A stretch of 64,000 bases of DNA from positions 35,933 through 99,932 of the IMG/VR virus record IMGVR_UViG_3300005529_000002, one strand, 5' to 3'. The notes below the pieces were generated by a model, which was not told the origin of the DNA, ran no database searches, and worked only from the letters and a program-made list of their open reading frames with translations. Shown here piece by piece: positions 24,671 to 46,375 of this stretch (position 1 is its first letter; each line of letters begins with the position of its first letter). The position numbers were made by a program, and so were the translations under genes. This DNA is from a virus.

Positions 24671-25258
24671 ATGCCAACCTCGGACGAGCCCGGACAGCGC
24701 GGCAAGTGGTGCGCCGAGCACCAGCGGTACGAGTGCGTCAGCCCCTGCAAGGACCGCACCCCCTGCCACAGCCCCCGCATGGTGACCGGCACCGAAAAAT
24801 GCCGGATGCACCTGGGGAAGAAAGCGCAGCCGGTCATCGCCGAAGCCAGGATCGAGCAGGCCGCACGGAAACTCCTCTACCAGCACGACGCCGCCCCCGT
24901 AGCTGACCCGCTCGAAGCACTCCAGCGGCTCGCCGGCCGTGCCCTCGCTCTCGAGGAGACCATCGGCACGCTCGTCAACGATCTCCGCTCGCTCCGGTAC
25001 GAGACCGAGGCGGGCGGGGAGCAGCTCCGCGGCGAAGTGGCCGTGCTCGAGCGGGCGATGGACCGTGCCGGGCGCCTGCTAGTGGATATCGCGAAGCTGA
25101 ACATCGAGGAACGGCTCGCGAAAGTCACGATGCGGCAGGCGCAGATGGCGATGGACGCGCTCGCGGCGGCGATGGCAGGCATGGGGATGAGCGCGGATCA
25201 GCAGCAGGAGGCGCGGAGGCGTGTCGCCCGTCACCTCCGTCTTGTCCCCGCCGCTTAG
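24671..25258 (+). CDS. Terminase small subunit (putative)
   Basis: Directly upstream of TerL; N-terminal C..C..CRMH Zn motif, helical C-terminus. Confidence 0.75.
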   Translation: MPTSDEPGQRGKWCAEHQRYECVSPCKDRTPCHSPRMVTGTEKCRMHLGKKAQPVIAEARIEQAARKLLYQHDAAPVADPLEALQRLAGRALALEETIGTLVNDLRSLRYETEAGGEQLRGEVAVLERAMDRAGRLLVDIAKLNIEERLAKVTMRQAQMAMDALAAAMAGMGMSADQQQEARRRVARHLRLVPAA

Positions 25259-26921
25259 CACGGACCCGTTCGCGGCAGCGCTGGCCGGCCGGCTCGACCC
25301 GCCGCCGCCCCGGATCCCGGAACGCCAGTGGGGGACGCCCGGCGAGCTTGCGCGGGCCGTGGATCCGTCCACGGTGCAGACACCGGCGCTGGACCTGATC
25401 GATGAGGCGCTCGTCTGGGCGTACTCCACGCCCGGTGCCAGGCTGATCGTGTCGATCGGGCCTCAGGAAGGCAAGTCGACCAGGATCTCCAAGGTCGGGG
25501 TGCTGTGGGCGCTGATCCGCAACCCCGAGACGCGGATCGGGATCGTCTCCTACGCGCAGCCTCTCGCGGAGTCTTTCGGCCGGGAGATCCGGAACTGGAT
25601 CACCACGTTCAACGGCGATGACGGTGCGCTGGACCTGGGCTTGCGCATCGCCCCGGATTACGGGTCGGCGAAGCGCTGGCAGCTCGCGGGGCACCGGGGC
25701 GGCGTGCTGTGCGCGGGTCTCCAGGGCGGGATATCGGGGCGCCCGCTCGACACGCTCCTGATCGACGACCCGTTCGCCGACCGCAAGCAGGCCGACTCGG
25801 CCTACTACCGCGAGCTTGTCTGGGAATGGTGGCGTTCGGTCGGTTCCCGGCGCCTGTCACCTGACGGCCCGGTGATCCAGGTGGCTACCCGCTGGCACGA
25901 GGATGACCTTGCCGGGCGGATGCTCGCGGCCGAGGACGGCCACCGCTGGCGGCTGGTCAACATCCCGGCGCTGGCTGACCATGACCCGGCGAAAGGGCAG
26001 TCTGACCCGCTCGGCCGGGAACCGGGGCAGTGGCTCAGGTCCGCCCGCGGGCGGACTGATGCGCAGTGGGAGCAGATCCGGATCGAATCCGGGTCGCGGA
26101 ACTTCGCCGCCCTGTACCAGGGGCGCCCGTCTCCCGATGCGGGGAACGTGTGGAAGCGCCCGTGGTGGCGCAGGTACCGCGAGCCGCTGTGGTCCCAGCA
26201 TCCCCAGGTCCCCGGCGCGTACCTGGTCCGCGACGTGGATGAGCTCGTCATGTCGTGGGACATGACGTTCAAGGACACTAAAGGCTCCGACTTTGTCGCC
26301 GGCGGCCTGCTGGCGCGCCGCGGCGCGGACGTGTTCCTGCTCGACGTGATCCGCAAGCGGCTGTCGTTCCCTGACACCCTGACCGCCTTCGCCGCGTTCT
26401 GTGCCCGGTGGCCCGGCGCTACCGCGAAATACGTCGAGGACAAGGCCAACGGGCCGGCGGTCATCTCGACGCTGCGGTCGAAAATCCCCGGCATTGTCGC
26501 GGTCAACCCGAAGGACTCCAAGTACGGGCGGGCGACCGCGGTCGCGCCGTTCGTGGAAGCCGGGAACGTCCTGGTGCCGGACGCGGAGATCGCGCTTTTC
26601 GACCCTGAGGAACTGATCTCCGAAGCGGCGGCATTCCCTAACGGCTCGCATGACGACCTCGTGGACATGATGAGCCAGGGACTCGCGGAGCTGCTGTTGG
26701 ACGGGACCGGCGCTCAGGCGTGGATCGAGTGGGCGCGGAAGAAGGCCCTCGCCGCGCAGGGGACAGCGCCGGAGGCCGGCGCGCCGGAACCGGAACCGGA
26801 ACCGGAACCGGAACCGGACCCTGAACCCGGTGTGCCGCTCACCCCGGAGCAGGCGAGGAAACAGGCACGGGACGAGATGTACCGGCAGCAGCGGGAAAGG
26901 GCAGCTTCTTGGCAGAGGTAG
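25221..26921 (+). CDS. terL: Terminase large subunit
   Basis: Walker A PQEGKS, Walker B LLIDDP, TRWHEDDL, LYQGRP, SWD, EDKANG, FPNGSHDDLVD. Confidence 0.97.
   Translation: MSPVTSVLSPPLSTDPFAAALAGRLDPPPPRIPERQWGTPGELARAVDPSTVQTPALDLIDEALVWAYSTPGARLIVSIGPQEGKSTRISKVGVLWALIRNPETRIGIVSYAQPLAESFGREIRNWITTFNGDDGALDLGLRIAPDYGSAKRWQLAGHRGGVLCAGLQGGISGRPLDTLLIDDPFADRKQADSAYYRELVWEWWRSVGSRRLSPDGPVIQVATRWHEDDLAGRMLAAEDGHRWRLVNIPALADHDPAKGQSDPLGREPGQWLRSARGRTDAQWEQIRIESGSRNFAALYQGRPSPDAGNVWKRPWWRRYREPLWSQHPQVPGAYLVRDVDELVMSWDMTFKDTKGSDFVAGGLLARRGADVFLLDVIRKRLSFPDTLTAFAAFCARWPGATAKYVEDKANGPAVISTLRSKIPGIVAVNPKDSKYGRATAVAPFVEAGNVLVPDAEIALFDPEELISEAAAFPNGSHDDLVDMMSQGLAELLLDGTGAQAWIEWARKKALAAQGTAPEAGAPEPEPEPEPEPDPEPGVPLTPEQARKQARDEMYRQQRERAASWQR
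26784..26828 (+). repeat. (CCGGAA)5 microsatellite encoding a PE linker
   Basis: Direct reading of the sequence. Confidence 0.9.
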
Positions 26922-27733: not shown

Positions 27734-30700
27734 ATGAGCCTCCGGTCCCGCGCGGCACTCCTTGACCGGCCCGGCAGCACCGTGGCCGTCGCCAAGACGT
27801 TCGGTCCCGGTGTCCCGGAGTCGTTCCGGCAGGGCGAGCAGCAGTCCCAGATGACCCCGTCGTCCCCGTTCTCGCCGGGGACCCCGATCGGGCCGTACGA
27901 CGGATACGACCGGGTACCGCGATCCCGCGATTTCGTCACCGGGTACAACATCGCGGCCCGGCCCCGGCTGCACGAACGGGTGTCGTTCGGCACGCTGAAG
28001 GGCCTCATCGAGGCGTACGACGTCGCTTCCTTGTGTATCTGGCACAGGATCGACTCCATCCGGTCCCTGGACTGGAAGCTCGTCTCCGCTGACCATTTCG
28101 ACGGCGACGTCACCGACATGGTGCCGCTCGGCCTCGCCGCCCTGTACAAGCCCGACCGGGAGAACTACTTCGACACGTGGCTGGCCCGGTGGCTGTACGA
28201 CGTGCTGGCCTACGACGCCGCGCCGCTGTACCGGCTGCGGACCCGCGGCGGCCGGGCCGTGGGACTGATGCCGTTTGACGGGACCAGCCTCGCCCCGCTA
28301 CTCGACTACTGGGGCCGCTCCCCGGCCGCGCCGGCACCCGGCGAACCCGAGCCGGAAGCTTACGTCCAGTACGCGAACGGGCTGCCGTGGGGGTGGCTGA
28401 CCCGCAGCGACGTGATCTACCAGCCATTCCGGCCGCACAACGACTCGATCTACGGGCAGGCCCCGATCGAGACGATCATCCTGAACGCCAACACCGACCT
28501 GAGGTTCCAGGTCTACTTCCTCCAGCGCTTCACTGCAGGGAACCTGCCCGCCGCGTTCGCCTCCGCCCCTGAGTCCTGGGGCCCGGACCAGATCGAGCAG
28601 TTCCAGGTGCTGTGGGACAGCTTCATGTTCGAGGATCAGTCCCGCAAGCACCAGGTGCGGTGGATGCCGCCCGGCAGCAAGTTCGTCTGGTCGAATGAGA
28701 AGGACTTCTCCGACCAGTTCTCCCTGTTCCTGATGCGGAAGACTGCCGCCGCGTTCCATGTCGTGCCCGCCGACCTCGGGTTCACCGAGAACGTGAACAG
28801 GTCGTCGGGCGAGTCGCAGGCCGACGTGCAGCACCGGGTCGGGGACCTGCCGCTGATCCGGTACATACAGCGGGTCATCTCCAGTTTCCTGCAAGACGAC
28901 CTCGGTCTGCCGCTCAAGTTCGCGTTCGACATCGGCGAGGAGCAGGACGACCGGCTCGCCCAGGCCCAGGCCGACGACATCTACATCAAGAACGGCACGG
29001 TGTCGCCGAGTTACATCGCGGAGATGCGGTTCGGCCGCACTGACGCACGGCCGGTCCCGAGGTTCATCTTCACCGAGCGCTCCGGGCCGATCCCGCTGAA
29101 CTCGCTGGAAGCGGTGGCGGGGGAAATCGACCCGGCGACCGCCGCACCCGCGCTGGAGGCGGCGCTCCCGCACCAGGTGTTCGAGGAGGCCCCCGGCGTC
29201 GAGCCGAACCCGCCGCTGTACGGGCAGCCGCTCGCGGAGGAGATCTACGGGCCGTCCGCGATCCCGGCGCACACCGAGACGCAGTCCGCGCAGCCGGTGC
29301 GCGAGCCGGACGAGGCCGGGCAGGTCCGCAAGGAGATGGCGGCGTTCCGGAATTACAGCAGGAAGCGGCGGCAGCGCGGGGTGTGGCAGGACTTCGGGTT
29401 CCGTCACGTCCCGGCAGCCGAGGCGGCGCTGCTGAACGCCGAAGGCAAGCGCACGGTCGTCAAGGCCGCCTCCGGCCCGGACCTCAGCCCCGGTTCCGGC
29501 ATGATCTCCCTCGACCTGCCAGACGGCCTGATCGACCCGGTGCAGGGCGGCGTCACCGATCACCATGTCACGATCGTCTATCTCGGCCGGGACGTGGACG
29601 ACGAGGCGTTCGAGGCAGCATGCCTGCGCGCAGCGTCGGCCGCGGCGGGGATGCCGGGGCCGCTGGAGGCACAGGTGGGCGGCATCGGATCGTTCCCGCC
29701 CTCGGATGGCAGCGACGGGAAGATGCCCGTGTGGGCTGGGGTCACAATGCCGGGCGGGGAGCAGCTCCGCAGCGCACTGGCTGACCTGTCGGCCAGCGAG
29801 CACCCGGAGTGGAAACCGCACGTCACCCTCGCCTACGCCGAGCCGGGCGACCCGCTGCCCAGCCCGGTTCCAGCTGTCCCGGTGACGTTCACGCACCTGT
29901 CCGTGCACCGCGGCGGCGACGTGGCCAGGTTCCGTCTCGGCGGGGAGCCCGGCCCGGCCGGCTGCTGCGGCGCGGAGTGCTGCACGAGTGAAGGCGGATG
30001 CTGCGGCGGCTCCGCAGGTTGCCAGTGCGCCGCCAGCAGCGACATAGCCAAGGCGGTGGTGACCGGCCCAAAAGCGTGGCCCGGCTGGGAGCTTGACCTC
30101 CCCGCAGCCGGGTACTGGGCTCCTCTCCTCGCCGCCGCTCTTTCCGGGGCGCTGAGCAGGACCCGTGCTGAGCAGATAGCCCGCGCCTGGCTCGCGGAGC
30201 ACCCGCAGGACCAGCCGGAGCAGGGCAGGCGGGAGACCGTCGAAGCCGCCGCCGCATGGCTGTACGCGCAGGGCCTGGACCTCGTCTCGCCTATCACGCC
30301 GCTCATGCCGGGGATGATCGCGGACGCCGCCCTCATCGGCGGAGTGAGCGCGGCAGCGGCAGCGGACGGCACCCCGGCGGACACCGGGGACTGGCAGCCG
30401 GGGAACCAGGGCGCGGCACGGGACCGGGCGGAAGCACTCGGGCTCGGCGCTGTCCTCGGTGCCGCGCAGGACCGCAGCGACCAGGACGCGCAGCAGGCGG
30501 CCGGCGGGTACATGACCTCCCTGGCCCGCGTGCTGGCTGACAGCGCGTCGTCAGGACTGGGTGCGGCTGCTGCCGGGGCGGCGCTCCTCTCGGCGCTCAG
30601 CGACCCTGAGGCGGCCGGGCGGACGGTGCTGGGCGTGCTCGTCACCGGCATCGGGGCGGCGGCGCTCGCGCTGTACCTGGCACGGAAGGTGCAGCGGGTC

Positions 30701-30835
30701 GCGTTCACCACGGCGCTGGACGCCAGGGTATGCGTGACCTGCTCGCAGTACGCGGCCGGCAGTCCCTACCCGATCGCGAGCGCACCTCAGGTGCCAGTCC
30801 ATCCGGCGTGCCGCTGCGCGATCCAGCCGGCGTAG
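27734..30835 (+). CDS. Portal protein fused to a 2H phosphoesterase (Acb1-like) and a MuF-like domain
   Basis: Portal motifs (YGQAPIE, F..GNLP, AFHVVPADLG); HHVTIVYLG and WKPHVTLAY; DARVCVTC...PVHPACRC. Confidence 0.9.
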   Translation: MSLRSRAALLDRPGSTVAVAKTFGPGVPESFRQGEQQSQMTPSSPFSPGTPIGPYDGYDRVPRSRDFVTGYNIAARPRLHERVSFGTLKGLIEAYDVASLCIWHRIDSIRSLDWKLVSADHFDGDVTDMVPLGLAALYKPDRENYFDTWLARWLYDVLAYDAAPLYRLRTRGGRAVGLMPFDGTSLAPLLDYWGRSPAAPAPGEPEPEAYVQYANGLPWGWLTRSDVIYQPFRPHNDSIYGQAPIETIILNANTDLRFQVYFLQRFTAGNLPAAFASAPESWGPDQIEQFQVLWDSFMFEDQSRKHQVRWMPPGSKFVWSNEKDFSDQFSLFLMRKTAAAFHVVPADLGFTENVNRSSGESQADVQHRVGDLPLIRYIQRVISSFLQDDLGLPLKFAFDIGEEQDDRLAQAQADDIYIKNGTVSPSYIAEMRFGRTDARPVPRFIFTERSGPIPLNSLEAVAGEIDPATAAPALEAALPHQVFEEAPGVEPNPPLYGQPLAEEIYGPSAIPAHTETQSAQPVREPDEAGQVRKEMAAFRNYSRKRRQRGVWQDFGFRHVPAAEAALLNAEGKRTVVKAASGPDLSPGSGMISLDLPDGLIDPVQGGVTDHHVTIVYLGRDVDDEAFEAACLRAASAAAGMPGPLEAQVGGIGSFPPSDGSDGKMPVWAGVTMPGGEQLRSALADLSASEHPEWKPHVTLAYAEPGDPLPSPVPAVPVTFTHLSVHRGGDVARFRLGGEPGPAGCCGAECCTSEGGCCGGSAGCQCAASSDIAKAVVTGPKAWPGWELDLPAAGYWAPLLAAALSGALSRTRAEQIARAWLAEHPQDQPEQGRRETVEAAAAWLYAQGLDLVSPITPLMPGMIADAALIGGVSAAAAADGTPADTGDWQPGNQGAARDRAEALGLGAVLGAAQDRSDQDAQQAAGGYMTSLARVLADSASSGLGAAAAGAALLSALSDPEAAGRTVLGVLVTGIGAAALALYLARKVQRVAFTTALDARVCVTCSQYAAGSPYPIASAPQVPVHPACRCAIQPA

Positions 30836-31591: not shown

Positions 31592-32145
31592 GGCCTCCAC
31601 TCCTCCCGGTAGCCGGGACGATGCCGGTAGCCCCAGCCGAGCAGCCGGACGGCACGCTCAAGTCCCTCGATCAGCTTCACGTCAGGCCCGCTGAAGGCCG
31701 GGCGCACCGCAGGAGCATCACCTGCCGCCCAGGCGCCGTAGTCGGCCGCCTCAGCTTTCCGCCGTGCCGTCGCAGCGGCCAGCTCGTCCAGGATCGCCAG
31801 TTCCGCATCGCACCGCGCGATCGTGTCACGCGGGTCGTTCGCCTCCATGAGCCGGGTAACCGACGAGTCGCCCATCGCCCAGGTGCCGTGCCATGTGTCA
31901 GTCTCGGTCGGCTCGGCGAAGACGAGGACGCCGCTTGACTGCTCGGTCCACTCGAAAGCGTTGCCCAGCCTGATCGCGTGCTGCGCGAGGTAAAGACGTT
32001 CGGCTACCCGCTGCCGCAGCCATGCCGGAAGTTCCGGCTCGCCGGGCCGGGGGAGCAGGTTCCTGAACTTCCAGCCTGGCGGCATCCTCACCTGAATACC
32101 CGGCTTCGCCGTCAGGTCGTACGGGACCAGTCCGTCTTCGCTCAC
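31588..32145 (-). CDS. DUF6221-like protein
   Basis: NDPRDTIARCDAELAILD...VRLLGWGYRHRPGYREEWRP. Confidence 0.8.
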   Translation of the reverse strand: MSEDGLVPYDLTAKPGIQVRMPPGWKFRNLLPRPGEPELPAWLRQRVAERLYLAQHAIRLGNAFEWTEQSSGVLVFAEPTETDTWHGTWAMGDSSVTRLMEANDPRDTIARCDAELAILDELAAATARRKAEAADYGAWAAGDAPAVRPAFSGPDVKLIEGLERAVRLLGWGYRHRPGYREEWRP

Positions 32146-32229
32146 TCTGGATCACGCTCCCGGCCGTCAACGATGACGTGCCCGTTCACGTCAAGGCTCA
32201 TGCCCTCCATCGTGCCAGGGAGGTGGGGC

Positions 32230-32748
32230 ATGGACGGTTTCCTTGTCGTCATCGACCGCGCCGAACTGCGGGCCGCGATACGGCGCAACCTCGCCGAGCA
32301 GGCCGCCCGCCAGCTTCCGGCACCGCTGCAGCGCGGCGTCGTCCGGCAGATGACCCCCGTCACCAAAGGCGAGGGAGAGAAGCGGTTCCTGCTCGGCCTG
32401 GCCTATCAGGCCGGGTTCGACCCGCGTATCCGCAAGGGGCAGGACGGCGGCCGGGACGCGTTCAGTCCCGAAGAGCTCGAAAAAGCCTGCTGGAGCTTCC
32501 TTCCCGGCGGCGGCCAGATCGGGATAGCCCACCTGGACGGCACTCTCGGCCACATGACCGTTACCGAGAACTACATATACCGGGGGCCGGACTGGGAGCA
32601 GCCGAGCGGCCTGGTGATCAAGTCCGGGATGGCGTGGCTGATCGGCGGGATCTGCGACGAGTACGCGTGGTCGCTGGCCAAATCCGGCAGGGTCAAGGGT
32701 TTCTCGCCGCAGGGCGGGGCGCGCCGCCGCCGTCTCGGGTACGCATGA
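32230..32748 (+). CDS. XkdF-like prohead serine protease
   Basis: KRFLLGLAY...D.FSPEELEKACWSF...H...ENY...W..G....W...KSG..KGFSPQG. Confidence 0.85.
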   Translation: MDGFLVVIDRAELRAAIRRNLAEQAARQLPAPLQRGVVRQMTPVTKGEGEKRFLLGLAYQAGFDPRIRKGQDGGRDAFSPEELEKACWSFLPGGGQIGIAHLDGTLGHMTVTENYIYRGPDWEQPSGLVIKSGMAWLIGGICDEYAWSLAKSGRVKGFSPQGGARRRRLGYA

Positions 32749-34865: not shown

Positions 34866-36377
34866 ATGACCGCAGCAGCAGAAGACATCACAGAGGAAAC
34901 CCTCGCCGCGATCAAGAAGGCCCAGACCACGGGCATCACCGAGGCGACCGGCGGATACTCCTACGACCTGTCGGGCCTCATCAACCTGATCCCGGTCGTC
35001 ACCCCGTTCCGCGACCACGTCCCCCGCACGTCAAGCCCGGACGGCAACCCGTTCGCGGTCTGGCGGGCGTTCATGGACGCCACCAACAGCCAGCCCGACC
35101 CCAGCATGGGCTTCGACTTCGCGGCCCCGGAGATGGTGTTCAACGAGCAGGACTTCCAGGCCCGGTACAAGCCGACCGGCATGGCAGTCAACGTCACCCA
35201 GGACTCGTTTGACCTGGCCAAGGGGTACTACGACCCGTACGCCAACGCCACGTTCCAGACCCTGAACCAGGTGCTGATCGGCGACGACCGCAAGCAGCTG
35301 TGCGCCCAGTCGTTCGCGTTGAAGGCGGCGACCGCGCCGACCCTCACCCAGCACGCCTCAGGCGGCACCATCGGCGCCGTCCAGGTGTACGTCGGCGTCG
35401 CCGGCCGCACCGGCTCCGGGTACTTCTGGGGTTCCGGGAACAGCCAGGGCGCGAGCAGCAACACCACGTTCGGGTCAGGGTCAGCCAACTCGGTGTCGGC
35501 TACCACCGCGGCGCTGCGCGGCGCCGTCGCCTACGACTGGTTCCAGAGCAGCAACGGCACCACCTGGTACTACTACGGGACCACCACGGTCAACGCGATC
35601 ACGATGACCTCCGTCATCACGTCGAACAACGCCGTCTCGTCAGGAGTCACGGTCCCGGACCTGACCGCCAACTGGAACGGCATCGCACCCGGCAAGCCCG
35701 GCTACACCGGCCCGACCTACAACGGGTCGGCCGACAACGGGTCCGCGAACGCCAACGACTATGACGGGTTCCTCGCCTCCCTTTCCGGCGACTACGACGG
35801 CAATGGCAAGTGGACCCAGCCCGGCCTCGGCACCGTGAACCCGTCCGTGTGGAACAGCCTCAACGGCGCGGCGCTGACCCTGACCGGCGGCACCGTCACC
35901 GAGATCGAGCAGTACCTGTTCCTGCCGCTGTGGCAGCAGGTCAAGTGCAGTCCCACCGCGATCATGTGCAACGGCATCCAGGCCCAGGAGATCGCCAACC
36001 TGATCCTCGGCGCCAACAGCGCGACCACGTTCCTCAACACCGATTCCAGCGGCCGCATCAACGTGTCCGCAGGCGGCCGGGTCGGGCACGTCATCAACGC
36101 CTACACGGGCGGCACCGAGGTCCCGATCGAGGTCCACGTCTCGCTGCCCCCGGGCACGATCATCGCCCGCACCGACCGGGTTCCCTTCCCCCAGGCGAAC
36201 ATCTCCAGCGTGCTGGAGCAGCGGTGCCTGCGCGACACCGCCCAGTACGAGTACGGCGTCTCCCGCGTACCCGGGGTGCAGGGCGGAGGCCCGCGGAAGG
36301 AAAGCGAAATCCGCACAGTCAGCGCGTTCATCAACCGCGCGCCGGTCGCGATGGCCGCCCTGTCGAACGTCGCCTGA
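34866..36377 (+). CDS. Major capsid protein
   Basis: AAGGAGG RBS; position; YDL....LIPV.TPFRD..PR, IEVH..LPPGTI motifs; strong codon bias. Confidence 0.88.
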   Translation: MTAAAEDITEETLAAIKKAQTTGITEATGGYSYDLSGLINLIPVVTPFRDHVPRTSSPDGNPFAVWRAFMDATNSQPDPSMGFDFAAPEMVFNEQDFQARYKPTGMAVNVTQDSFDLAKGYYDPYANATFQTLNQVLIGDDRKQLCAQSFALKAATAPTLTQHASGGTIGAVQVYVGVAGRTGSGYFWGSGNSQGASSNTTFGSGSANSVSATTAALRGAVAYDWFQSSNGTTWYYYGTTTVNAITMTSVITSNNAVSSGVTVPDLTANWNGIAPGKPGYTGPTYNGSADNGSANANDYDGFLASLSGDYDGNGKWTQPGLGTVNPSVWNSLNGAALTLTGGTVTEIEQYLFLPLWQQVKCSPTAIMCNGIQAQEIANLILGANSATTFLNTDSSGRINVSAGGRVGHVINAYTGGTEVPIEVHVSLPPGTIIARTDRVPFPQANISSVLEQRCLRDTAQYEYGVSRVPGVQGGGPRKESEIRTVSAFINRAPVAMAALSNVA

Positions 36378-39276: not shown

Positions 39277-40539
39277 ATGCCGCCCAGCATCCCGACCAGT
39301 TTCTTCCCGGTCTTCTCATCCGCGATGCTGCTCGGCCGGGAAGGCATCACCACCCCCGGCCAGGCGCCGACCGCGTTCACGTCGATCCCGGTCAAGGCAC
39401 TGACGACGAGCCCCAAGATCACCTGGCTGAAAGACCAGAACCTCCGCGGCTCGAATGTGGAGACATTCGGGCAGGCGCAGGGCGGGCGGTACGCGGAGAT
39501 CACCACCCCGCAGTCGCTGGCCTACGCGGACACTATCGGCCACCCGCTGTTCGCGATGTGCGGCGACTACACGGTCACAGGGGCCGCTGCATCGCCGAAC
39601 TCGACGCTGAACGGCGGGGTCGCCGCTGGCGCCACGTCGCTCACCGTCGCGTCCGGGACCGGGTTCGCCGCGAGCCAGTGGATCCAGATCGACACCCTCG
39701 CGAACGCCGAGATCGTCCAGGTACTGTCCGTCGCCTCCAACGTGATCACGCTGGCGACGAACACCCCCACCCGGTTCTCCCACCTGACCGCCGCCCCGGT
39801 CACGAACACCCAGGCCCCGTACGTCCACCTGTTCAGCGGCATCAACCCGGGTTCCTCAACGGGTAACGCGTCCGCCCAGCCGCCCACGTACACGGTGCTC
39901 CACCGCACCGGCCTGCCCGGGGCCGGCAGCCCCGGATTCTCCGCAGACCAGTACCTGTACGGCCACATGACGGACCTGAAGCTGTCCGCCAAGGCCACCG
40001 ACTGGCTGCTGTGGGATTCGAAGATCACCGCGCTGTCCCGCTCGAACCCCGCCGCGAACTACGCCCCTGCTTTCAGCACCGTGACGGGCTGGCCGGCGTG
40101 GCGGGGGTCGATCACCCTCAACGCCGGTGCCGTCTACAACGTGAGCGACATGACGATCGCGATGTCGCGCAAGCCCGACATCATCTGGACTTCCGACGGG
40201 CAGCAGGACCCGTACGCCATCGGCGCCGGCCCGTTCTCGGCCATGTTCACCATCGACTACGACGCCGTCAGCGACGAATCCGCTCTGAACTACGCCCTGA
40301 ACAACACCCAGCCCGCGCTCGTCTACACGATCTCCAACGGCCTGTCGGGCGCCAGCCAGCTGTCGCTGTCCATCGCGGCCGCGCTGGCCGCGCACGAGAC
40401 CGCCGACCTGGCCGCCCAGCGCACCCTGTGGGGTTACAAGACCACAGGCGAGCTGGTGTCCAGCACGAGCGATGCCGGGAACTCGGGCGGGTACAGCCCG
40501 TTCCAGGCCACCCTCACCAACGCCGTGCCGTCCTACTAG
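39277..40539 (+). CDS. Major tail tube protein
   Basis: LG.E...PG; D..LRGS; Y.DTIG..L; C-terminal TLTNAVPSY; followed by the chaperone. Confidence 0.85.
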   Translation: MPPSIPTSFFPVFSSAMLLGREGITTPGQAPTAFTSIPVKALTTSPKITWLKDQNLRGSNVETFGQAQGGRYAEITTPQSLAYADTIGHPLFAMCGDYTVTGAAASPNSTLNGGVAAGATSLTVASGTGFAASQWIQIDTLANAEIVQVLSVASNVITLATNTPTRFSHLTAAPVTNTQAPYVHLFSGINPGSSTGNASAQPPTYTVLHRTGLPGAGSPGFSADQYLYGHMTDLKLSAKATDWLLWDSKITALSRSNPAANYAPAFSTVTGWPAWRGSITLNAGAVYNVSDMTIAMSRKPDIIWTSDGQQDPYAIGAGPFSAMFTIDYDAVSDESALNYALNNTQPALVYTISNGLSGASQLSLSIAAALAAHETADLAAQRTLWGYKTTGELVSSTSDAGNSGGYSPFQATLTNAVPSY

Positions 40540-40588
40540 GACGCCGCGGCCATCCCCCAGCTATCAGCGGACACTCATGCGAGGTTCA

Positions 40589-41083
40589 ATGCACGATGTA
40601 GTTGTGCCAGGCGACGGCGGCTGGTTCGACCTGATCCCCGTACGGGAACTCACGGTGGGCCAGCAGGACGAGTACCTGGACCTGCGGGACCAGCTGTTCG
40701 AGGAGGCGCGCGCCAAGCTGCCGCCGCCCGGCCCCGACCCGGCGAACCCGGCGATGATGGCACCCGCGCCGGAGGTCCGGTTCTCCCGCCAGCAGCTGAC
40801 CCGCCTCCACAACCTGGCGGCCTCCTACGCGGTGACGGGCACGTCGTACGACGGGGTGCTGCCCTGGCATGACGGATCACGGGCGGCGGCGGGCCTTCCC
40901 GCGTGGAACGCGCTGCGGCAGGCTCTCGCCAGGGACGGCGGCGTGTTCGACACGCTACTCGGTGAGGTCCCAAAAGAGGAGAGCCCGACTACTTCCGGCA
41001 TCTCCGGGACTTCATCGTCAGGCGATGCGGATGCCCCCCTCCCGGGCTCCGCGGAGGAGACATCCGCCACGCCCACGGAGTAG
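40589..41083 (+). CDS. Tail assembly chaperone (gpG)
   Basis: Between tube and TMP; slippery C CCA AAA at 40969-40975. Confidence 0.8.
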   Translation: MHDVVVPGDGGWFDLIPVRELTVGQQDEYLDLRDQLFEEARAKLPPPGPDPANPAMMAPAPEVRFSRQQLTRLHNLAASYAVTGTSYDGVLPWHDGSRAAAGLPAWNALRQALARDGGVFDTLLGEVPKEESPTTSGISGTSSSGDADAPLPGSAEETSATPTE

Positions 41084-41199
41084 TCCGCGGCTGGTATCAC
41101 CCGGAGGGGCCGGAGAACCTCCCGGCTGCCGTGCGGGCCCTGCTCGATGACGTGTCGGCAGTGCTGGACCAGATGAGGACTGACACGGGCGGATGGTGA
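40975..41199 (+). CDS. Tail assembly chaperone -1 frameshift extension (gpGT)
   Basis: -1 frame open for 74 codons: RGEPDYFRHLRDF...ENLPAAVRALLDDV...W*. Confidence 0.75.
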   Translation, partial: RGEPDYFRHLRDFIVRRCGCPPPGLRGGDIRHAHGVVRGWYHPEGPENLPAAVRALLDDVSAVLDQMRTDTGGW

Positions 41200-41704: not shown

Positions 41705-44700
41705 GTGGCGATCGAGGAGACCATTGCCGTAGGCGTCTCCGGGCTCGGTGATGTCACCGCCCTGGCCGATGCGCTGGACAAGGCGGCAGCGTCCGCGGCG
41801 CGGCTTGACGAGGCGGCCGGGAAAGGGTTCAGCTTCTCCGGTGCCGCATCGGGAGCGGGGAAGCTCGCGGACTCCTACGAGGCGGCGTTCGCCCGTATCC
41901 AGGCGCAGTTCGACGCCATGGAAAAGCGGATGGCGTCGATGGGGAAGGCCGCAGGCGGAGACTCCGCGGCGGCCAGCCTCGGCGCGGTCGGGGAGGCGGG
42001 AAAGGCCGCAGCGGCAGGGCTGGATTCGGCTGCCGCGTCCGGGGCGGCGGCCGGGGACGCCCTGAAGTCCGCCGCGGGCGGCGCAGATTCCGCCGCGGCC
42101 TCGTTCGGCGCTGCCGGGGACGCCGCTAAATCGGCGGCTGCGGGGGCGGACGCGGTCGCCGGGTCAGGTGCCGCTGCCGCTGACGGGCTCAAGTCCGCCG
42201 GGGCAGGGGCGGACGCGGCCGCGGGACAGCTCGCGGCGCTGCGTGCCGAGATGACGGCTACGGCGGCGTCGGCGGACGCGACAGCAGCGGCGACAGCGGA
42301 CGCGAACGCGAAGATCGCTCGCGGGCAGCGGCTGAACACGATGGCCGCGCGGGACGCCTCAGCGGAGGCGGTCGCGGCGCAGCGGGCCCAGTCCGCGGCG
42401 TCAAGGCAGGCCGCCGAAGACGCTGCGGCCTCGTCATCGAAACACTCGGCCGTCGTGCTCGGGCTCGCTGCGGCGCTCGGCTACGGCACCGAGAAAGCCG
42501 CTCAGCTCCAGACCTCCGTCACCAAGCTGTACACGTCAGCCGGGGAGTCGCGGGCGAACCTGCCGATGATCTCCCAGGGCATCCTCGCCATGTCCGGGGC
42601 CACTGACACGTCGCAGGCGGACCTGGCAGCCGGGGCGTATTTCGCGGAGTCGGCCGGGTTCCACGGCCGGAACGCGCTCGCCGTGACCAGGGCAGCAGCG
42701 CAAGGCGCGAAAGCTGAGGGCGCGAACGTCCCCGATGTCGCGAACGCGCTGACGACGGTGCTGAACGACTACTTCGGCGGGCCGGCGAAAACCCCGCAGC
42801 TTCAGCAGAAGCAGGCCACTCAGGCGATGAATGAGATCATCGCGAGCGTCGGCCAGGGCAAGATGACCTTGCAGGGGCTGTCCACGGCGCTGCCGGTGCT
42901 GCTGCCGACCGCGAAGACCGCCGGGCTGAAACTGCCGCAGGTGCTCGGCGCCGAGGCGACTATGACCGCCGGGGGCACCACTCCCGAGAACGCGGCGCAG
43001 GAAATCCGGTACACGGTACAGCACCTCCAGAAGCTGTCGAACCCGCAGGCCGCCGAGATGCAGATGCTCGGCATCAACCCTGTCCAGCTCCAGCATGACC
43101 TGGGCAGGCAGGGTCTGACGGGGACGATCGGCGAAGTAGACAACGCGATCCAGAAGCACATGGGGCCGGGCGGCATGGTGCTGCTCGACACCATGAACCA
43201 GGCGAAACTGGCGACCCAGTCCGCGCGCGAGGAGATCGCGGCGATGCCGCCGTCGATCCGGAAGACCGCCGAGGCGTACCTGTCCGGCAGCATCAACGCG
43301 AAGGCGTTCAACCAGGCTGTCCGGCAAGGCCCGGAGTCGGCCAGGGACGCGAACCTGCTCAAGCAGTTCGAATCCACGGCGTCATCGGCGCTCGGGTTCT
43401 CCCAGCTCGTCAAGTCGGGGCAGGGCAACCAGCAGACTGTCGCCGCCGCCCTGGCCACCTTGATGGGCGGCCAGCCCGGCATGCAGGTCGCCGAGCAGGT
43501 CGGCGGCGCGGACCACCTGAAGACGTTCGGCGACAACGTCAGGACGATCGGCGACACAGCCGCGCACACCGGGGACAACATACGGGGCTGGAACGACATC
43601 CAGGGCCAGCTGAATTTCAAGCTCGGGTCGTTCGTCCACACCGCTGAGGCGGTCGCGACCGAGGCCGGGCAGATGGTGCTCCCGGACCTGACGAAAGTGC
43701 TCGGCGTGGCGTCCGGCGCCGGCCAGTTCCTGGCGTCCCACCCTGCGGTGACGCAGCCGCTGATGGCCGGCGGCGGGATCCTGGCGGCAGGGTACGCGCT
43801 CCAGAAAGTCCGGCAGCCGGTCACGGCAGCACTCCAGGGTGCCGGGAAGATCGGCGAGGCGCTGCACATCCCTGGCCTGGACAAGCTGGCGAATATCGGG
43901 AAAGACACGGGACTGGCGGGCGCCGCCACCGGGCTCACCGGGGCGGCCACGTCACTGGACGGGGCGGCGGCCAGCCTGGAAGGCGCGGCGGCCAGCCTGA
44001 AGGGCGGCAGCCTGGCGGGTGCCGCGGAAGGCGGCGGCCTTCCCGGGGCTGCCGCGACGGGGGAACGCGCAGCCGGGTCGGCGGCGGAGAAAGACGCTGC
44101 CCTCGCGGGTGAGGAGGCGGCCGGCGGGTCTTTCCTGAGCAAGTTCCTGGGCGGGGCGAAATCCGCTGCGGGAGGTCTCGGTGAGGTCGCCAGCCGCATG
44201 GTGATGCCGCTCGCGGTCGCGGCGACCGTGAAGCAGGTCGGTGACCAGCTCGCCCCGGCGGGCAGCAACGCCGGCAAGATCACGAGCATCACTCAGCATT
44301 CCAGCCTCGCCGGGCCGTCCGGGTCGCTCGACATCGGCGGATGGTTCGGGCTGCTCGCCCAGCACATGCCGGACCTGTTCGGCAGCGGCGGCAGGCCGCA
44401 GACGGCGTCGCTGGCCGGAGGCGGCCGGTACGCTGCCCTGTCCGGCGACTACCGGCAGTCGGTCCCGGCCCCCTACGCCGCCCCCCGGGCGGCACCAGCG
44501 CCGCTGCCGGCCGAGTCGCAGATGCCGCACCTGTACGCCGCCGCGGGCCACCCCGGCACGATGACCGGCGGCCCCCCGGTCAAGATCCCCGCCCCGGACC
44601 TCAGCGCGGTCGAAGGTGCCACCGCCAAGGCCAAGAACGCCTTGAACACGCTGGGAAACATCCAGGTCAAGCCCGTCAAGGTGCCTGCCCCGGACACTTC

Positions 44701-46375
44701 GGCCGTCGATTCGGCGTCCGCTAAGGTCAAGGGCGCGATGACGGCGCTGTCTTCCATGCACATCAACCCGCTGCGGATGCCGGCCGCCGACCTGTCCGCC
44801 CTGGACCAGGCGAAAGCGAAAACCGCGTCGGACATGAACGGGATCACCGGCACCATGGCGGCAGCAGCCGGCCCGGCCCGCGCCGCGGGTGCAGCGGTGG
44901 CGGCGGGGATGGCCGGCGGGATCAGCGCCGGGACAGGAGCGGCGGTAGCGGCAGCGCACCAGCTCGCCGCCGAGGTCGAGAGCGCCCTCAACGTCTCCCT
45001 CCAGGTGCACAGCCCGTCGAAAGTGTCCGAGCACAGCGGCGAGGAGTTCAGCGCCGGCCTGGCTTCCGGCATAGACAAGGGAAAAACCAAGGCGAAGAAG
45101 TCCGCCGCCGGCCTGTCCGCTTCCACCGTGAACTCGCTGGTCACCGGGCTCCAGGGCGGCCAGTCCGCGGTCGATGCCGCGATGGCGGCGCTCGGCTCCC
45201 CCGCCAAGCCCCAGGACATCACCACCATCGAGGCGACCGTCGCGAAACTGAAATCCGATCTGGCGGCGGGACTGAAGAAGGGCGATGTCTCCAAATCCGA
45301 GGACAGCGCCCTGACGACGATGCTGGACCGGGACAACCAGAAGCTCCAGCGGCTCGCGGCGCAGCGCACGAAACTGGAAACCGAGATCGCCTCCGCCCAG
45401 CAGCTCGGCCAGTCCGCGATCAGCGAGGCGTCCATCCTGAACGCCGGGCAGGCCGCCCCCGCTGAGTCGATCACCGCGCAGGCCAGCAGCCAGACGGTGC
45501 AGGGCATGCAGTACCAGGCGCAGCAGCAGCAGCAGTTCGCGAGCCAGCTGGCCCAGCTGCAGAAGCAGGGCCTCAACGCCCAGTCCATCTCGCAACTCGC
45601 GCAGGGCGGCGCGGCGGCCGGCCTGCCGGTCACCGAGGGCCTCGTCGGGGACAAGTCCGCGATCTCCCAGATCAACCAGTCCGAGAAGCAGATCATGGCG
45701 GCTGCCGGGAGCATCGGGAACACGGGTGCCCCGGCCATGTACCAGGCAGGGCAGCAAGTCGCCTCCCAGCTCGGCAAGGGCCTCCAAGGCCAGCTCAAGG
45801 CGGTTGACAACCAGATGAAGTCCGTCGCCCACGGCATGGTGAGCGCCGTCGAGGCGGGACTGAACGGCAAGGGCCTCAAGGCGGCGATGGCGGCGGACGG
45901 GGCCTCGGCCGGGCAGGGGTTCGCCAGCGGGCTCCAGTCGGAGATCCCCGCCGCGTCGGCGGCCGGGGCGGCGCTCGCGCAGGCTGCGGAAGCAGCGGCG
46001 AAAGCGCAGCTCCAGTCCCATTCCCCGTCGCTGGTGTTCCGGCGCGTCGGGTTCACCGTGCCGGAGGGGTTCGCGCAGGGCATAGGCGACGGTGCCGGGC
46101 CGGTGTCGGCCGCCGCCGGGCGGATGGCGTCCGGTGCGGCAGCGCATGCGGGGATGATGCACCCGTACGGCGGCGGCGGCGGCGGAACACCCAGCGTGGG
46201 CGGGTTCTCCGGTGGGGGCGGCGGTACCCAGGTGGTCCACCACCACTACAACATAACGGTACAGGGCAGTGTCACCACTGAGCGTGACCTGTTCAACGCC
46301 ATGCAGGACAGGCAGCTGGAACGGTCCGCGAATAACTACCGGGGCGGCTGGAACCTGCCGTACAAGGGGGCGTGA
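41705..46375 (+). CDS. Tape measure protein
   Basis: 1556 aa, Ala-rich helical; TP901-type core; HSPS motifs; NITVQGSV at the C-terminus. Confidence 0.95.
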   Translation: MAIEETIAVGVSGLGDVTALADALDKAAASAARLDEAAGKGFSFSGAASGAGKLADSYEAAFARIQAQFDAMEKRMASMGKAAGGDSAAASLGAVGEAGKAAAAGLDSAAASGAAAGDALKSAAGGADSAAASFGAAGDAAKSAAAGADAVAGSGAAAADGLKSAGAGADAAAGQLAALRAEMTATAASADATAAATADANAKIARGQRLNTMAARDASAEAVAAQRAQSAASRQAAEDAAASSSKHSAVVLGLAAALGYGTEKAAQLQTSVTKLYTSAGESRANLPMISQGILAMSGATDTSQADLAAGAYFAESAGFHGRNALAVTRAAAQGAKAEGANVPDVANALTTVLNDYFGGPAKTPQLQQKQATQAMNEIIASVGQGKMTLQGLSTALPVLLPTAKTAGLKLPQVLGAEATMTAGGTTPENAAQEIRYTVQHLQKLSNPQAAEMQMLGINPVQLQHDLGRQGLTGTIGEVDNAIQKHMGPGGMVLLDTMNQAKLATQSAREEIAAMPPSIRKTAEAYLSGSINAKAFNQAVRQGPESARDANLLKQFESTASSALGFSQLVKSGQGNQQTVAAALATLMGGQPGMQVAEQVGGADHLKTFGDNVRTIGDTAAHTGDNIRGWNDIQGQLNFKLGSFVHTAEAVATEAGQMVLPDLTKVLGVASGAGQFLASHPAVTQPLMAGGGILAAGYALQKVRQPVTAALQGAGKIGEALHIPGLDKLANIGKDTGLAGAATGLTGAATSLDGAAASLEGAAASLKGGSLAGAAEGGGLPGAAATGERAAGSAAEKDAALAGEEAAGGSFLSKFLGGAKSAAGGLGEVASRMVMPLAVAATVKQVGDQLAPAGSNAGKITSITQHSSLAGPSGSLDIGGWFGLLAQHMPDLFGSGGRPQTASLAGGGRYAALSGDYRQSVPAPYAAPRAAPAPLPAESQMPHLYAAAGHPGTMTGGPPVKIPAPDLSAVEGATAKAKNALNTLGNIQVKPVKVPAPDTSAVDSASAKVKGAMTALSSMHINPLRMPAADLSALDQAKAKTASDMNGITGTMAAAAGPARAAGAAVAAGMAGGISAGTGAAVAAAHQLAAEVESALNVSLQVHSPSKVSEHSGEEFSAGLASGIDKGKTKAKKSAAGLSASTVNSLVTGLQGGQSAVDAAMAALGSPAKPQDITTIEATVAKLKSDLAAGLKKGDVSKSEDSALTTMLDRDNQKLQRLAAQRTKLETEIASAQQLGQSAISEASILNAGQAAPAESITAQASSQTVQGMQYQAQQQQQFASQLAQLQKQGLNAQSISQLAQGGAAAGLPVTEGLVGDKSAISQINQSEKQIMAAAGSIGNTGAPAMYQAGQQVASQLGKGLQGQLKAVDNQMKSVAHGMVSAVEAGLNGKGLKAAMAADGASAGQGFASGLQSEIPAASAAGAALAQAAEAAAKAQLQSHSPSLVFRRVGFTVPEGFAQGIGDGAGPVSAAAGRMASGAAAHAGMMHPYGGGGGGTPSVGGFSGGGGGTQVVHHHYNITVQGSVTTERDLFNAMQDRQLERSANNYRGGWNLPYKGA

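Follow-up and report, generated by a model that had tools for sequence, protein, structure and literature searches.

A portal–2H phosphoesterase–MuF fusion with a conserved −1 frameshift signal at its cargo/MuF junction

Introduction

Can a phage portal double as the carrier of an enzyme, and what would such an enzyme do inside the head? The question is raised by a 64,000-nucleotide (nt) stretch of viral DNA, referred to here as the window (positions 35,933 to 99,932 of IMG/VR record IMGVR_UViG_3300005529_000002). One long gene on its + strand (27734–30835) was described in a first-pass annotation as a portal domain, a 2H phosphoesterase and a MuF-like end joined in a single protein. That annotation tethered the enzyme to the portal, compared it with Acb1 of phage T4 and suggested that it destroys immune second messengers.

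Proteins of this kind are not without precedent. In the passages of Iyer et al. that deal with them, 2H domains fused to MuF or portal proteins are proposed to be ribonucleases (RNases) or degraders of the nucleotides of nucleotide-activated defence (PMC5512222, 2017; PMC9503650, 2022), and the immune-nucleotide idea is therefore a published hypothesis and not a new one. Portal–MuF fusions have been reported from Microbacterium phages as well (PMC7302621). What is new here is a cargo slot in which 2H and NUDIX domains are exchanged, together with a conserved frameshift site at the cargo/MuF junction; the kind of fusion itself had already been published. Our analysis confirms the observation made at this locus and supports its interpretation in part.

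Results

An intact triple fusion in the sole portal gene

The gene is a single open reading frame (ORF) of 1033 amino acids (aa) plus stop, without one internal stop codon, and contains in order a portal region, a 2H domain, a Cys-rich segment, the frameshift site and a MuF domain. The motifs quoted in the first-pass annotation were located at residues 610–618 (HHVTIVYLG) and 693–701 (WKPHVTLAY) and, for the MuF end, at 996–1003 and 1023–1028. The fusion is thus intact, as had been claimed. An assembly artefact is rejected as its origin: the same layout recurs in more than 50 independent viral contigs and in the cultured Arthrobacter phages Sonali and Mufasa8.

The portal region spans residues 1 to ~579 (27734–29470, +), as delimited by PF04860, phrog_2662, alignment A2 and the ORF ends of relatives. 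Pfam Phage_portal (PF04860, HK97-type) matches residues 105–426 with 45.7 bits against a cut-off of 39.1, and phrog_2662 (portal) matches residues 69–520 with an expectation value (E) of 1.2e-37. PF04860 matches nothing else in the 8.17-Mb, 95%-complete assembly, and the gene must therefore encode the working portal; tethering of the enzyme to the portal is borne out as a covalent fusion in the phage's sole portal gene. The region closes with a conserved basic helix (residues ~534–570, AAFR..W.DF.F..LN), whose columns E534 to N568 are near-invariant in alignment A2 and which is also present in portal-only relatives. In some relatives both the match and the ORF end shortly past the equivalent of residue 579. 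Three IMG/VR members of the same portal lineage (L020, L021 and L023) stop just past the basic helix and bear neither cargo nor MuF, so the carrier also exists as a plain portal.

Insertions of at least 400 aa split the portal domain of the database relatives P0002, P0008 and P0038 after the equivalent of residues ~184–253. Precomputed Pfam annotation gives LAGLIDADG_3 for P0038 and Hint_2 for the related entries P0093 and P0118, which suggests from sequence matches that inteins reside within portal genes.

The C-terminal part (residues 778–1033; 30065–30832, +) begins at WPGW, ends in CxxC...HxxCxC and resembles the MuF/SPP1-gp7-like head morphogenesis domains. Its terminal cysteines and histidine are C1000, C1003, H1023, C1026 and C1028; in alignment A2 all are invariant except C1026, which is nearly so, and in alignment A4 the equivalents of all five are invariant. 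The MuF assignment is carried by relatives and by predicted structure. A 21-relative profile of residues 770–1033 matches residues 737–985 of Sonali gp3, a region that includes the PF04233 domain of that protein (E 1.7e-34), and PF04233 itself is matched by 18 of 30 aligned C-terminal parts of relatives (best E 6.3e-15). PHROG head-morphogenesis (MuF) families match residues 976–1032 at E about 3e-4, and TIGR01641 stays below its cut-off on the MuF end (12.8 bits against 39.65). An AlphaFold2 model has a helical body and a mean predicted local distance difference test (pLDDT) score of 92.9. Its top matches in BFVD are capsid morphogenesis and MuF-like or minor-capsid proteins, at modest template modelling (TM) scores of 0.4–0.55. 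Against 48,161 solved chains (VIA-align) the best Z was 6.5, which is helical noise, and no solved relatives were found; the search of cultured phages with the MuF part returned the zinc-ribbon end only. By these profile and model comparisons the C-terminal part is a divergent MuF domain, in agreement with the MuF-like end first noted.

The cargo is a LigT-type 2H domain outside the Acb1 family

The 2H phosphoesterase cargo occupies residues 577–737 (29462–29944, +), limits close to the 29501–29942 claimed earlier; they are supported by PF13563, the invariant His and Thr residues, the AlphaFold2 model and VIA-align Z scores. Its two HxT motifs are H611-V-T613 (29564–29572, +) and H696-V-T698 (29819–29827, +). 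Both are intact, as had been stated, and none of H611, T613, H696 and T698 varies among 29 aligned family sequences. Pfam 2_5_RNA_ligase2 (PF13563) matches residues 611–715 with 31.8 bits against a cut-off of 27, rising to 34.3 bits for the isolated region. The Acb1 family (PF23474) reaches only 11.9 bits against a cut-off of 27 (E 0.19), over just 17 residues around the second HxT; the domain is not an Acb1-family member.

The AlphaFold2 model of residues 575–743 (pLDDT 92.1, predicted TM score 0.86) has a clear 2H fold. Structural neighbours were scored by VIA-align, and Foldseek gave a similar ranking. Highest are the Deinococcus cyclic phosphodiesterase (CPDase) 5h7e (Z 15.4, root-mean-square deviation (rmsd) 3.1 over 148 aligned residues), Thermus TT0787 (1iuh; Z 14.7), human Usb1 (Z 14.2) and E. 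coli LigT (5ldm; Z 14.1, rmsd 2.2 over 142 residues). AKAP18 and rotavirus VP3 follow at Z about 11.3, the plant ADP-ribose 1''-2'' cyclic phosphate (Appr>p) phosphodiesterase 1fsi/1jh6 at 10.9–11.8 and the coronavirus protein ns2 (MHV, 4z5v) at 10.9. Phage Acb1 (7t26) ranks 36th, behind LigT, Usb1, AKAP18 and VP3, with Z 10.3, rmsd 3.6 over 125 aligned residues and 18% identity; a Burkholderia phage phosphodiesterase (9q2g, Z 10.0) and the Penguinpox cyclic GMP-AMP (cGAMP) phosphodiesterase (Z 9.6) score lower still. Structure prediction upholds the 2H fold, and LigT and the CPDases lie nearer to the domain than Acb1 does (Z 14–15.4 versus 10.3). The nearest predicted viral structures are actinophage proteins annotated as RNA ligase, structural protein or capsid morphogenesis protein, and when solved structures were searched with the 2H sequence, every match was at chance level (E 0.039 or worse).

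Residues 575–743 retrieve 1048 of 1.84 billion representative proteins at E ≤1e-3, 134 of them at E ≤1e-30. The family amounts to about 130–230 clusters at 50% identity and lies nearly always inside large multidomain phage proteins; most members are long and multidomain, and a few stand alone at 150–170 aa. Judged on the model and its intact catalytic motifs, the domain is a LigT-type 2H enzyme outside the Acb1 family, with a fold compatible with more than one substrate.

Searching cultured phages with the 2H module gave distant matches only, at ≤32% identity (for example Gordonia phage Dexdert gene 18). In the Gordonia phages Dexdert, Tiamoceli and Twonlo the distant 2H (32% identity) lies in genes labelled RNA ligase, head maturation protease or capsid maturation protease, which suggests, on these labels, that 2H cargo is fused to prohead proteases too. 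The host assembly holds a second, unrelated PF13563 gene (G000:C108:19330-19761, 59 bits), presumably a cellular LigT-like enzyme. A weak 2H match was seen in an unpublished genome, G042, on which no claim is built.

2H and NUDIX domains alternate in one cargo slot

A database search with residues 570–1033 found 127 proteins, many in portal–2H–MuF order, and IMG/VR held 179 relatives, of which the loci of 80 were examined; a whole-protein scan of genome contigs found no relatives. The clearest comparison is P0028, a protein about 53% identical throughout, yet with a NUDIX domain exactly in the 2H position between the same flanks. Arthrobacter phage Sonali gp3, annotated as 'portal and MuF-like fusion protein', is likewise portal–NUDIX–MuF. 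Among 35 heptamer-bearing genes of the lineage (the heptamer is described below), the cargo is 2H in 12, NUDIX in 20, both in one and none in two. The alternation of 2H and NUDIX in one slot of orthologous portals is one of the features we report as new.

The 2H module (residues 577–737) is also found at 55–75% identity in carriers whose portals share only 24–28% with this one, and it occupies different positions there; the module thus behaves as a mobile cassette. Further domains seen in other relatives are NUDIX, ADP-ribosyltransferase, Zeta-type kinase, GNAT, DUF7178 or intein domains. The closest database relative (P0002, 1759 aa) continues from portal–2H–MuF into a C-terminal ADP-ribosyltransferase (PF03496, residues 1547–1688), an order which means that the same carrier can bear cargo both before and after MuF.

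Between cargo and frameshift site lies a Cys-rich segment (29960–30031, +) with 9 Cys in 22 residues (CCGAECC..GCCGG..GCQC). Similar segments accompany 2H or NUDIX cargo in P0020, P0028 and L032 and are absent from most relatives; from its composition it is a possible metal or disulfide site.

A conserved frameshift signal marks the cargo/MuF junction

At the junction the gene carries the slippery heptamer C_CCA_AAA (30067–30073, +) in X_XXY_YYZ register (G778-P779-K780), in step with codons 779–780 and with MuF downstream in the 0 frame. A Shine-Dalgarno (SD)-like element, AAGGCGGTGGTG (30050–30061, +), ends 5 nt before the heptamer, its AAGG core ending 13 nt before, and a predicted hairpin (30079–30113, +) starts 5 nt past it. 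The −1 frame meets a TGA at 30094–30096 (+), so that a slip would yield a 787-aa portal–2H product ending ..PK-SVARLGA. A 45-nt segment at the hairpin folds at −23.6 kcal/mol, compared with −14.9 ± 4.0 for other segments of the same gene (3rd percentile).

The heptamer is a constant of the lineage. It stands in register at the junction in 52 of 52 genes with both parts, the window's included, and the base that follows it is G in 92%. Sonali and Mufasa8 carry it in register too, at residues 738 and 739. In two genes (L034, L042) it is replaced by G_GGA_AAA, which keeps the slipperiness and not the Pro-Lys. Codon use does not favour these triplets: in the genes concerned, 5.3% of prolines are encoded by CCA and 12.9% of lysines by AAA. 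Within 25 nt upstream, 26 of 37 relatives have AAGGNGG or GGNGGTG, as against 1.1% of background segments, and the downstream structure falls in the lowest decile of same-gene segments in 18 of the 37.

Seven related loci have MuF in another frame than portal and cargo, and this frame is always −1. In six of them (L027, L047, L053, L056, L069 and L083) the frame changes at an in-register C_CCA_AAA, at the conserved Pro-Lys just before WPGW; the 0 frame stops 9–29 codons on, and the MuF frame is open for 259–568 codons. The MuF frame of L027 and L083 has no ATG, GTG or TTG start, and in L083 it opens just 6 nt before the heptamer; MuF would therefore be made in these two only by a −1 slip. A separate MuF start is accordingly rejected for both and is unlikely for the other four. 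Sequencing error is rejected for all six, which come from six metagenomes and share an A-run of four, the same junction and long open MuF frames. At a further locus, L059, the portal-frame ORF ends within the NUDIX cargo, with the remainder in another frame ~90 nt earlier and not at the heptamer site; this break could reflect either a genuine disruption or a faulty assembly.

In the window itself MuF is in frame, which admits another account: a plain fusion without recoding, in which the heptamer survives from an ancestor that depended on the frameshift, the 1033-aa protein is the sole product and 2H and MuF are present on all 12 subunits. The 0 frame holds MuF in the window and in 45 of 52 relatives, and portal–MuF fusions are annotated without a frameshift in cultured Microbacterium and Arthrobacter phages (PMC7302621), as this account would have it. 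However, the rare CCA and AAA are kept in every in-frame gene although the proteins are just 40–60% identical, and two genes have switched to the other slippery heptamer. Every in-frame gene, moreover, has a −1 stop 1–25 codons after the site (median 4) compared with a median of 56 at control positions. Rare codons ending in T often help to form this stop (GGT GAC or GAT GAC, for example), and in the window a predicted stable hairpin comes after the site. We consider the plain fusion unlikely. The heptamer pattern is hard to explain without selection for slippage, and we read the junction, from its sequence, as a conserved dnaX-like −1 frameshift signal that would also be used in this phage. 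The literature searched yielded no published frameshift within a portal or MuF gene.

CCCAAAA occurs three times in the window, all on the + strand (30067, 40969 and 63893), and not on the − strand. At 40969–40975 C_CCA_AAA_G stands in register in an ORF (40472–41083) upstream of the tape measure gene (41705–46375). The −1 frame of that ORF is open for 74 codons, to 41197–41199, and from this arrangement the site is likely a tail-chaperone shift site.

Neighbouring genes

The portal–2H–MuF gene lies within an ordinary siphophage head/tail module, between the large terminase subunit (25221–26921, +) and an S78_2/XkdF-type prohead protease (31978–32748, +). The protease gene is two genes downstream and is a candidate for cargo release. 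Virion anchor and enzyme domain thus share one polypeptide within the packaging/head cluster, the arrangement that defines polyvalent or head-packaged effectors.

Discussion

A mechanism for the fusion

We give somewhat better than an even chance to the following account as a whole: the portal gene serves as a carrier, the 2H domain is a packaged effector, and a recoding site sets the share of MuF. The protein consists of the portal (residues 1 to ~579), a cargo slot holding 2H, and MuF; in orthologues the slot holds NUDIX, both enzymes or nothing. An unshifted ribosome makes the 1033-aa portal–2H–MuF, and a −1 slip would make the 787-aa portal–2H. The portal ring would then combine subunits with and without MuF, each of them carrying 2H, and the slip rate would set the number of MuF domains.

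Portal C-termini point into the capsid interior. Combined with the internal position of MuF in SPP1, this predicts up to 12 enzyme copies in the head of every virion. A real fusion in the sole portal gene, placed between terminase and protease, likewise leads us to expect the enzyme in the capsid interior. The 2H domain would act as a packaged effector that cleaves phosphodiester bonds of small nucleotides, with host immune second messengers as likely targets. It would do so once freed by proteolysis and ejected along with the DNA, or else in the producing cell prior to assembly, and it would reach the next host only if cut off the portal, perhaps by the prohead protease.

The last step separates this account from one in which the enzyme is never delivered, and instead works solely as a late cytoplasmic protein of the producing cell, ahead of procapsid assembly, or within the capsid; the fusion would then serve co-expression and not injection. 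Neither a cleavage site nor a mechanism of release is apparent, and 2H follows the conserved C-terminal helix of the portal with almost no linker. Portals remain with the capsid at ejection. These points fit an undelivered enzyme, whereas a prohead protease is encoded two genes downstream. MuF-linked effectors are, moreover, widely inferred to be capsid-internal ejection proteins, a status that proteomics has shown in some phages (PMC5512222, PMC6316719, bioRxiv 10.64898/2026.04.10.717836). That the enzyme is never delivered seems to us improbable.

Several observations weigh against the favoured account, in which a packaged 2H effector is combined with recoding at the junction. The window's hairpin and SD-like element overlap conserved coding motifs (VAKA, WPGW). 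The frameshift counts overstate independence, the relatives being kin and the flanking elements overlapping coding motifs. MuF being in frame here, the heptamer could be inherited and little used. A covalently tied enzyme is left behind in the capsid unless something cuts it from the portal. PF04233 does not match the protein itself at E up to 1, nor was a match found in the search of its own genome. The nearest solved structures are RNA-end CPDases and Usb1, not Acb1. Finally, neither a SMODS cGAS/DncV-like nucleotidyltransferase (CD-NTase) nor Csm1 was detected in the 95%-complete host assembly, an absence that neither supports nor excludes an anti-defence role.

What the 2H domain may cleave

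We rank small signalling nucleotides first among the candidate substrates, as a tentative choice that falls short of an even chance. The ranking follows from the NUDIX that alternates in the slot, from the failure to find an Rnl-type RNA ligase partner in the phage contig or the assembly, and from viral precedents: viruses repeatedly use LigT-like phosphodiesterases against nucleotide signalling (PMC11410667).

The domain could instead be an RNA-end enzyme, a 2',3'-cyclic phosphodiesterase or a Usb1-like 3' exoribonuclease, that does not act on signalling nucleotides but heals the ends left in tRNA or mRNA by host anticodon nucleases or toxin RNases, or trims host RNAs. Its best structural matches are of this type (5h7e, TT0787, LigT and Usb1, with 20–24% identity to the bacterial enzymes), and its Pfam family is 2_5_RNA_ligase2. 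In some carriers this 2H module is coupled to a Zeta/AAA_33 P-loop kinase domain, recalling kinase + CPDase healing modules, and the relevant passage of Iyer et al. 2017 holds an RNase role equally likely (PMC5512222). By the account given in that same source, however, such 2H versions never associate with RNA ligases (PMC5512222); no Rnl-type ligase was found here, and a lone CPDase leaves a 2'-phosphate end and thus no RNA repair. NUDIX in the same slot points to small-nucleotide chemistry. Nor does fold likeness fix the substrate, the fold being shared by Acb1, VP3 and the poxvirus cGAMP phosphodiesterase. We therefore hold an RNA-end enzyme to be rather unlikely.

A third reading has the 2H and NUDIX cargo process molecules derived from ADP-ribose (Appr>p, ADP-ribose itself or cyclic ADP-ribose isomers), so as to assist or reverse ADP-ribosylation chemistry or to weaken a defence based on nicotinamide adenine dinucleotide (NAD) such as Thoeris. 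The two domains alternate or co-occur in the slot, P0002 has its ADP-ribosyltransferase past MuF, and the plant Appr>p enzyme 1fsi/1jh6 is among the structural matches. Iyer et al. 2022, in the part concerned with these fusions, place portal/MuF-fused NUDIX and 2H domains in NAD–ADP-ribose conflict networks (PMC9503650). On the other side, the NUDIX cargo gives generic MutT-like matches, far below every NCBIfam subfamily cut-off; this phage's protein has no ADP-ribosyltransferase domain; and the Appr>p enzyme is a weaker match than the LigT-type structures. We regard this reading as very unlikely.

Relation to known systems

The effectors of Iyer et al. share with this protein a virion anchor (portal, MuF) joined to 2H, a late-gene context and the same proposal of a packaged enzyme (PMC5512222, PMC9503650). 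The passages of that work on such fusions do not mention a fixed portal/MuF cargo slot with 2H/NUDIX exchange or a junction frameshift, both of which are found here. Sonali gp3 and Mufasa8 gp3 belong to the same portal lineage (43% identity over residues 1–466) and have the same order of portal, cargo, C_CCA_AAA_G and MuF; they differ in their NUDIX cargo, in a MuF domain that passes Pfam and in records that annotate a single product.

Acb1 of T4 and FBB1 is, like the cargo, a phage-encoded 2H fold with two catalytic HxT/S motifs, but it is a free cytoplasmic protein without a virion fusion, its Pfam model does not recognise the window domain at cut-off, and its Z of 10.3 lies below the LigT type. 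LigT and the CPDases (5ldm, 5h7e and 1iuh) are the best fold matches, with rmsd 2.2–3.2 over 142–148 residues, 22–24% identity and a shared Pfam clan. The window domain nonetheless has no sequence-level match to the solved chains and belongs to a distinct family in large multidomain phage proteins. Rotavirus VP3 offers another 2H domain fused to a virion-core protein, its C-terminal 2',5'-phosphodiesterase (Z 11.3), but in a eukaryotic RNA virus, with 2',5'-oligoadenylate (2-5A) as a known substrate and a non-homologous carrier.

The junction resembles E. coli dnaX (tau/gamma) in its tripartite make-up of SD-like element, X_XXA_AAA-type heptamer and predicted hairpin, and in a shifted product that ends a few codons on, giving long and truncated forms. 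The dnaX heptamer is A_AAA_AAG rather than C_CCA_AAA. The six relatives with MuF in the −1 frame have the opposite topology to dnaX, the long form requiring the shift as in the tail chaperones G/GT. In SPP1, the MuF protein gp7 is brought into the capsid interior in few copies by binding to the portal gp6 and promotes the start of infection (PMC6316719). The same partners are here linked covalently, in frame or by frameshift, with an enzyme between them.

Significance

Enzymes fused to portal or MuF proteins are a known class of presumed injected effectors that is experimentally untouched. The locus and its relatives give this class a grammar of portal, cargo slot, recoding site and MuF. A portal frameshift would, if real, be a new means of adjusting the composition of the unique capsid vertex. 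The exchange of 2H and NUDIX provides natural controls, and since Sonali and Mufasa8 are in culture and bear this heptamer, recoding and packaging are directly testable. A broader proposal, that portals of a widespread group of actinobacterial phages are modular vehicles with slot and frameshift, whose 2H cargo degrades immune messengers from the first seconds of infection, we consider doubtful as a whole. Should the 2H domain degrade immune nucleotides, signalling-based defence would for the first time be seen to be countered by something packaged beforehand and not expressed; should it prove an RNA-end enzyme, an early conflict at the level of RNA would be indicated instead.

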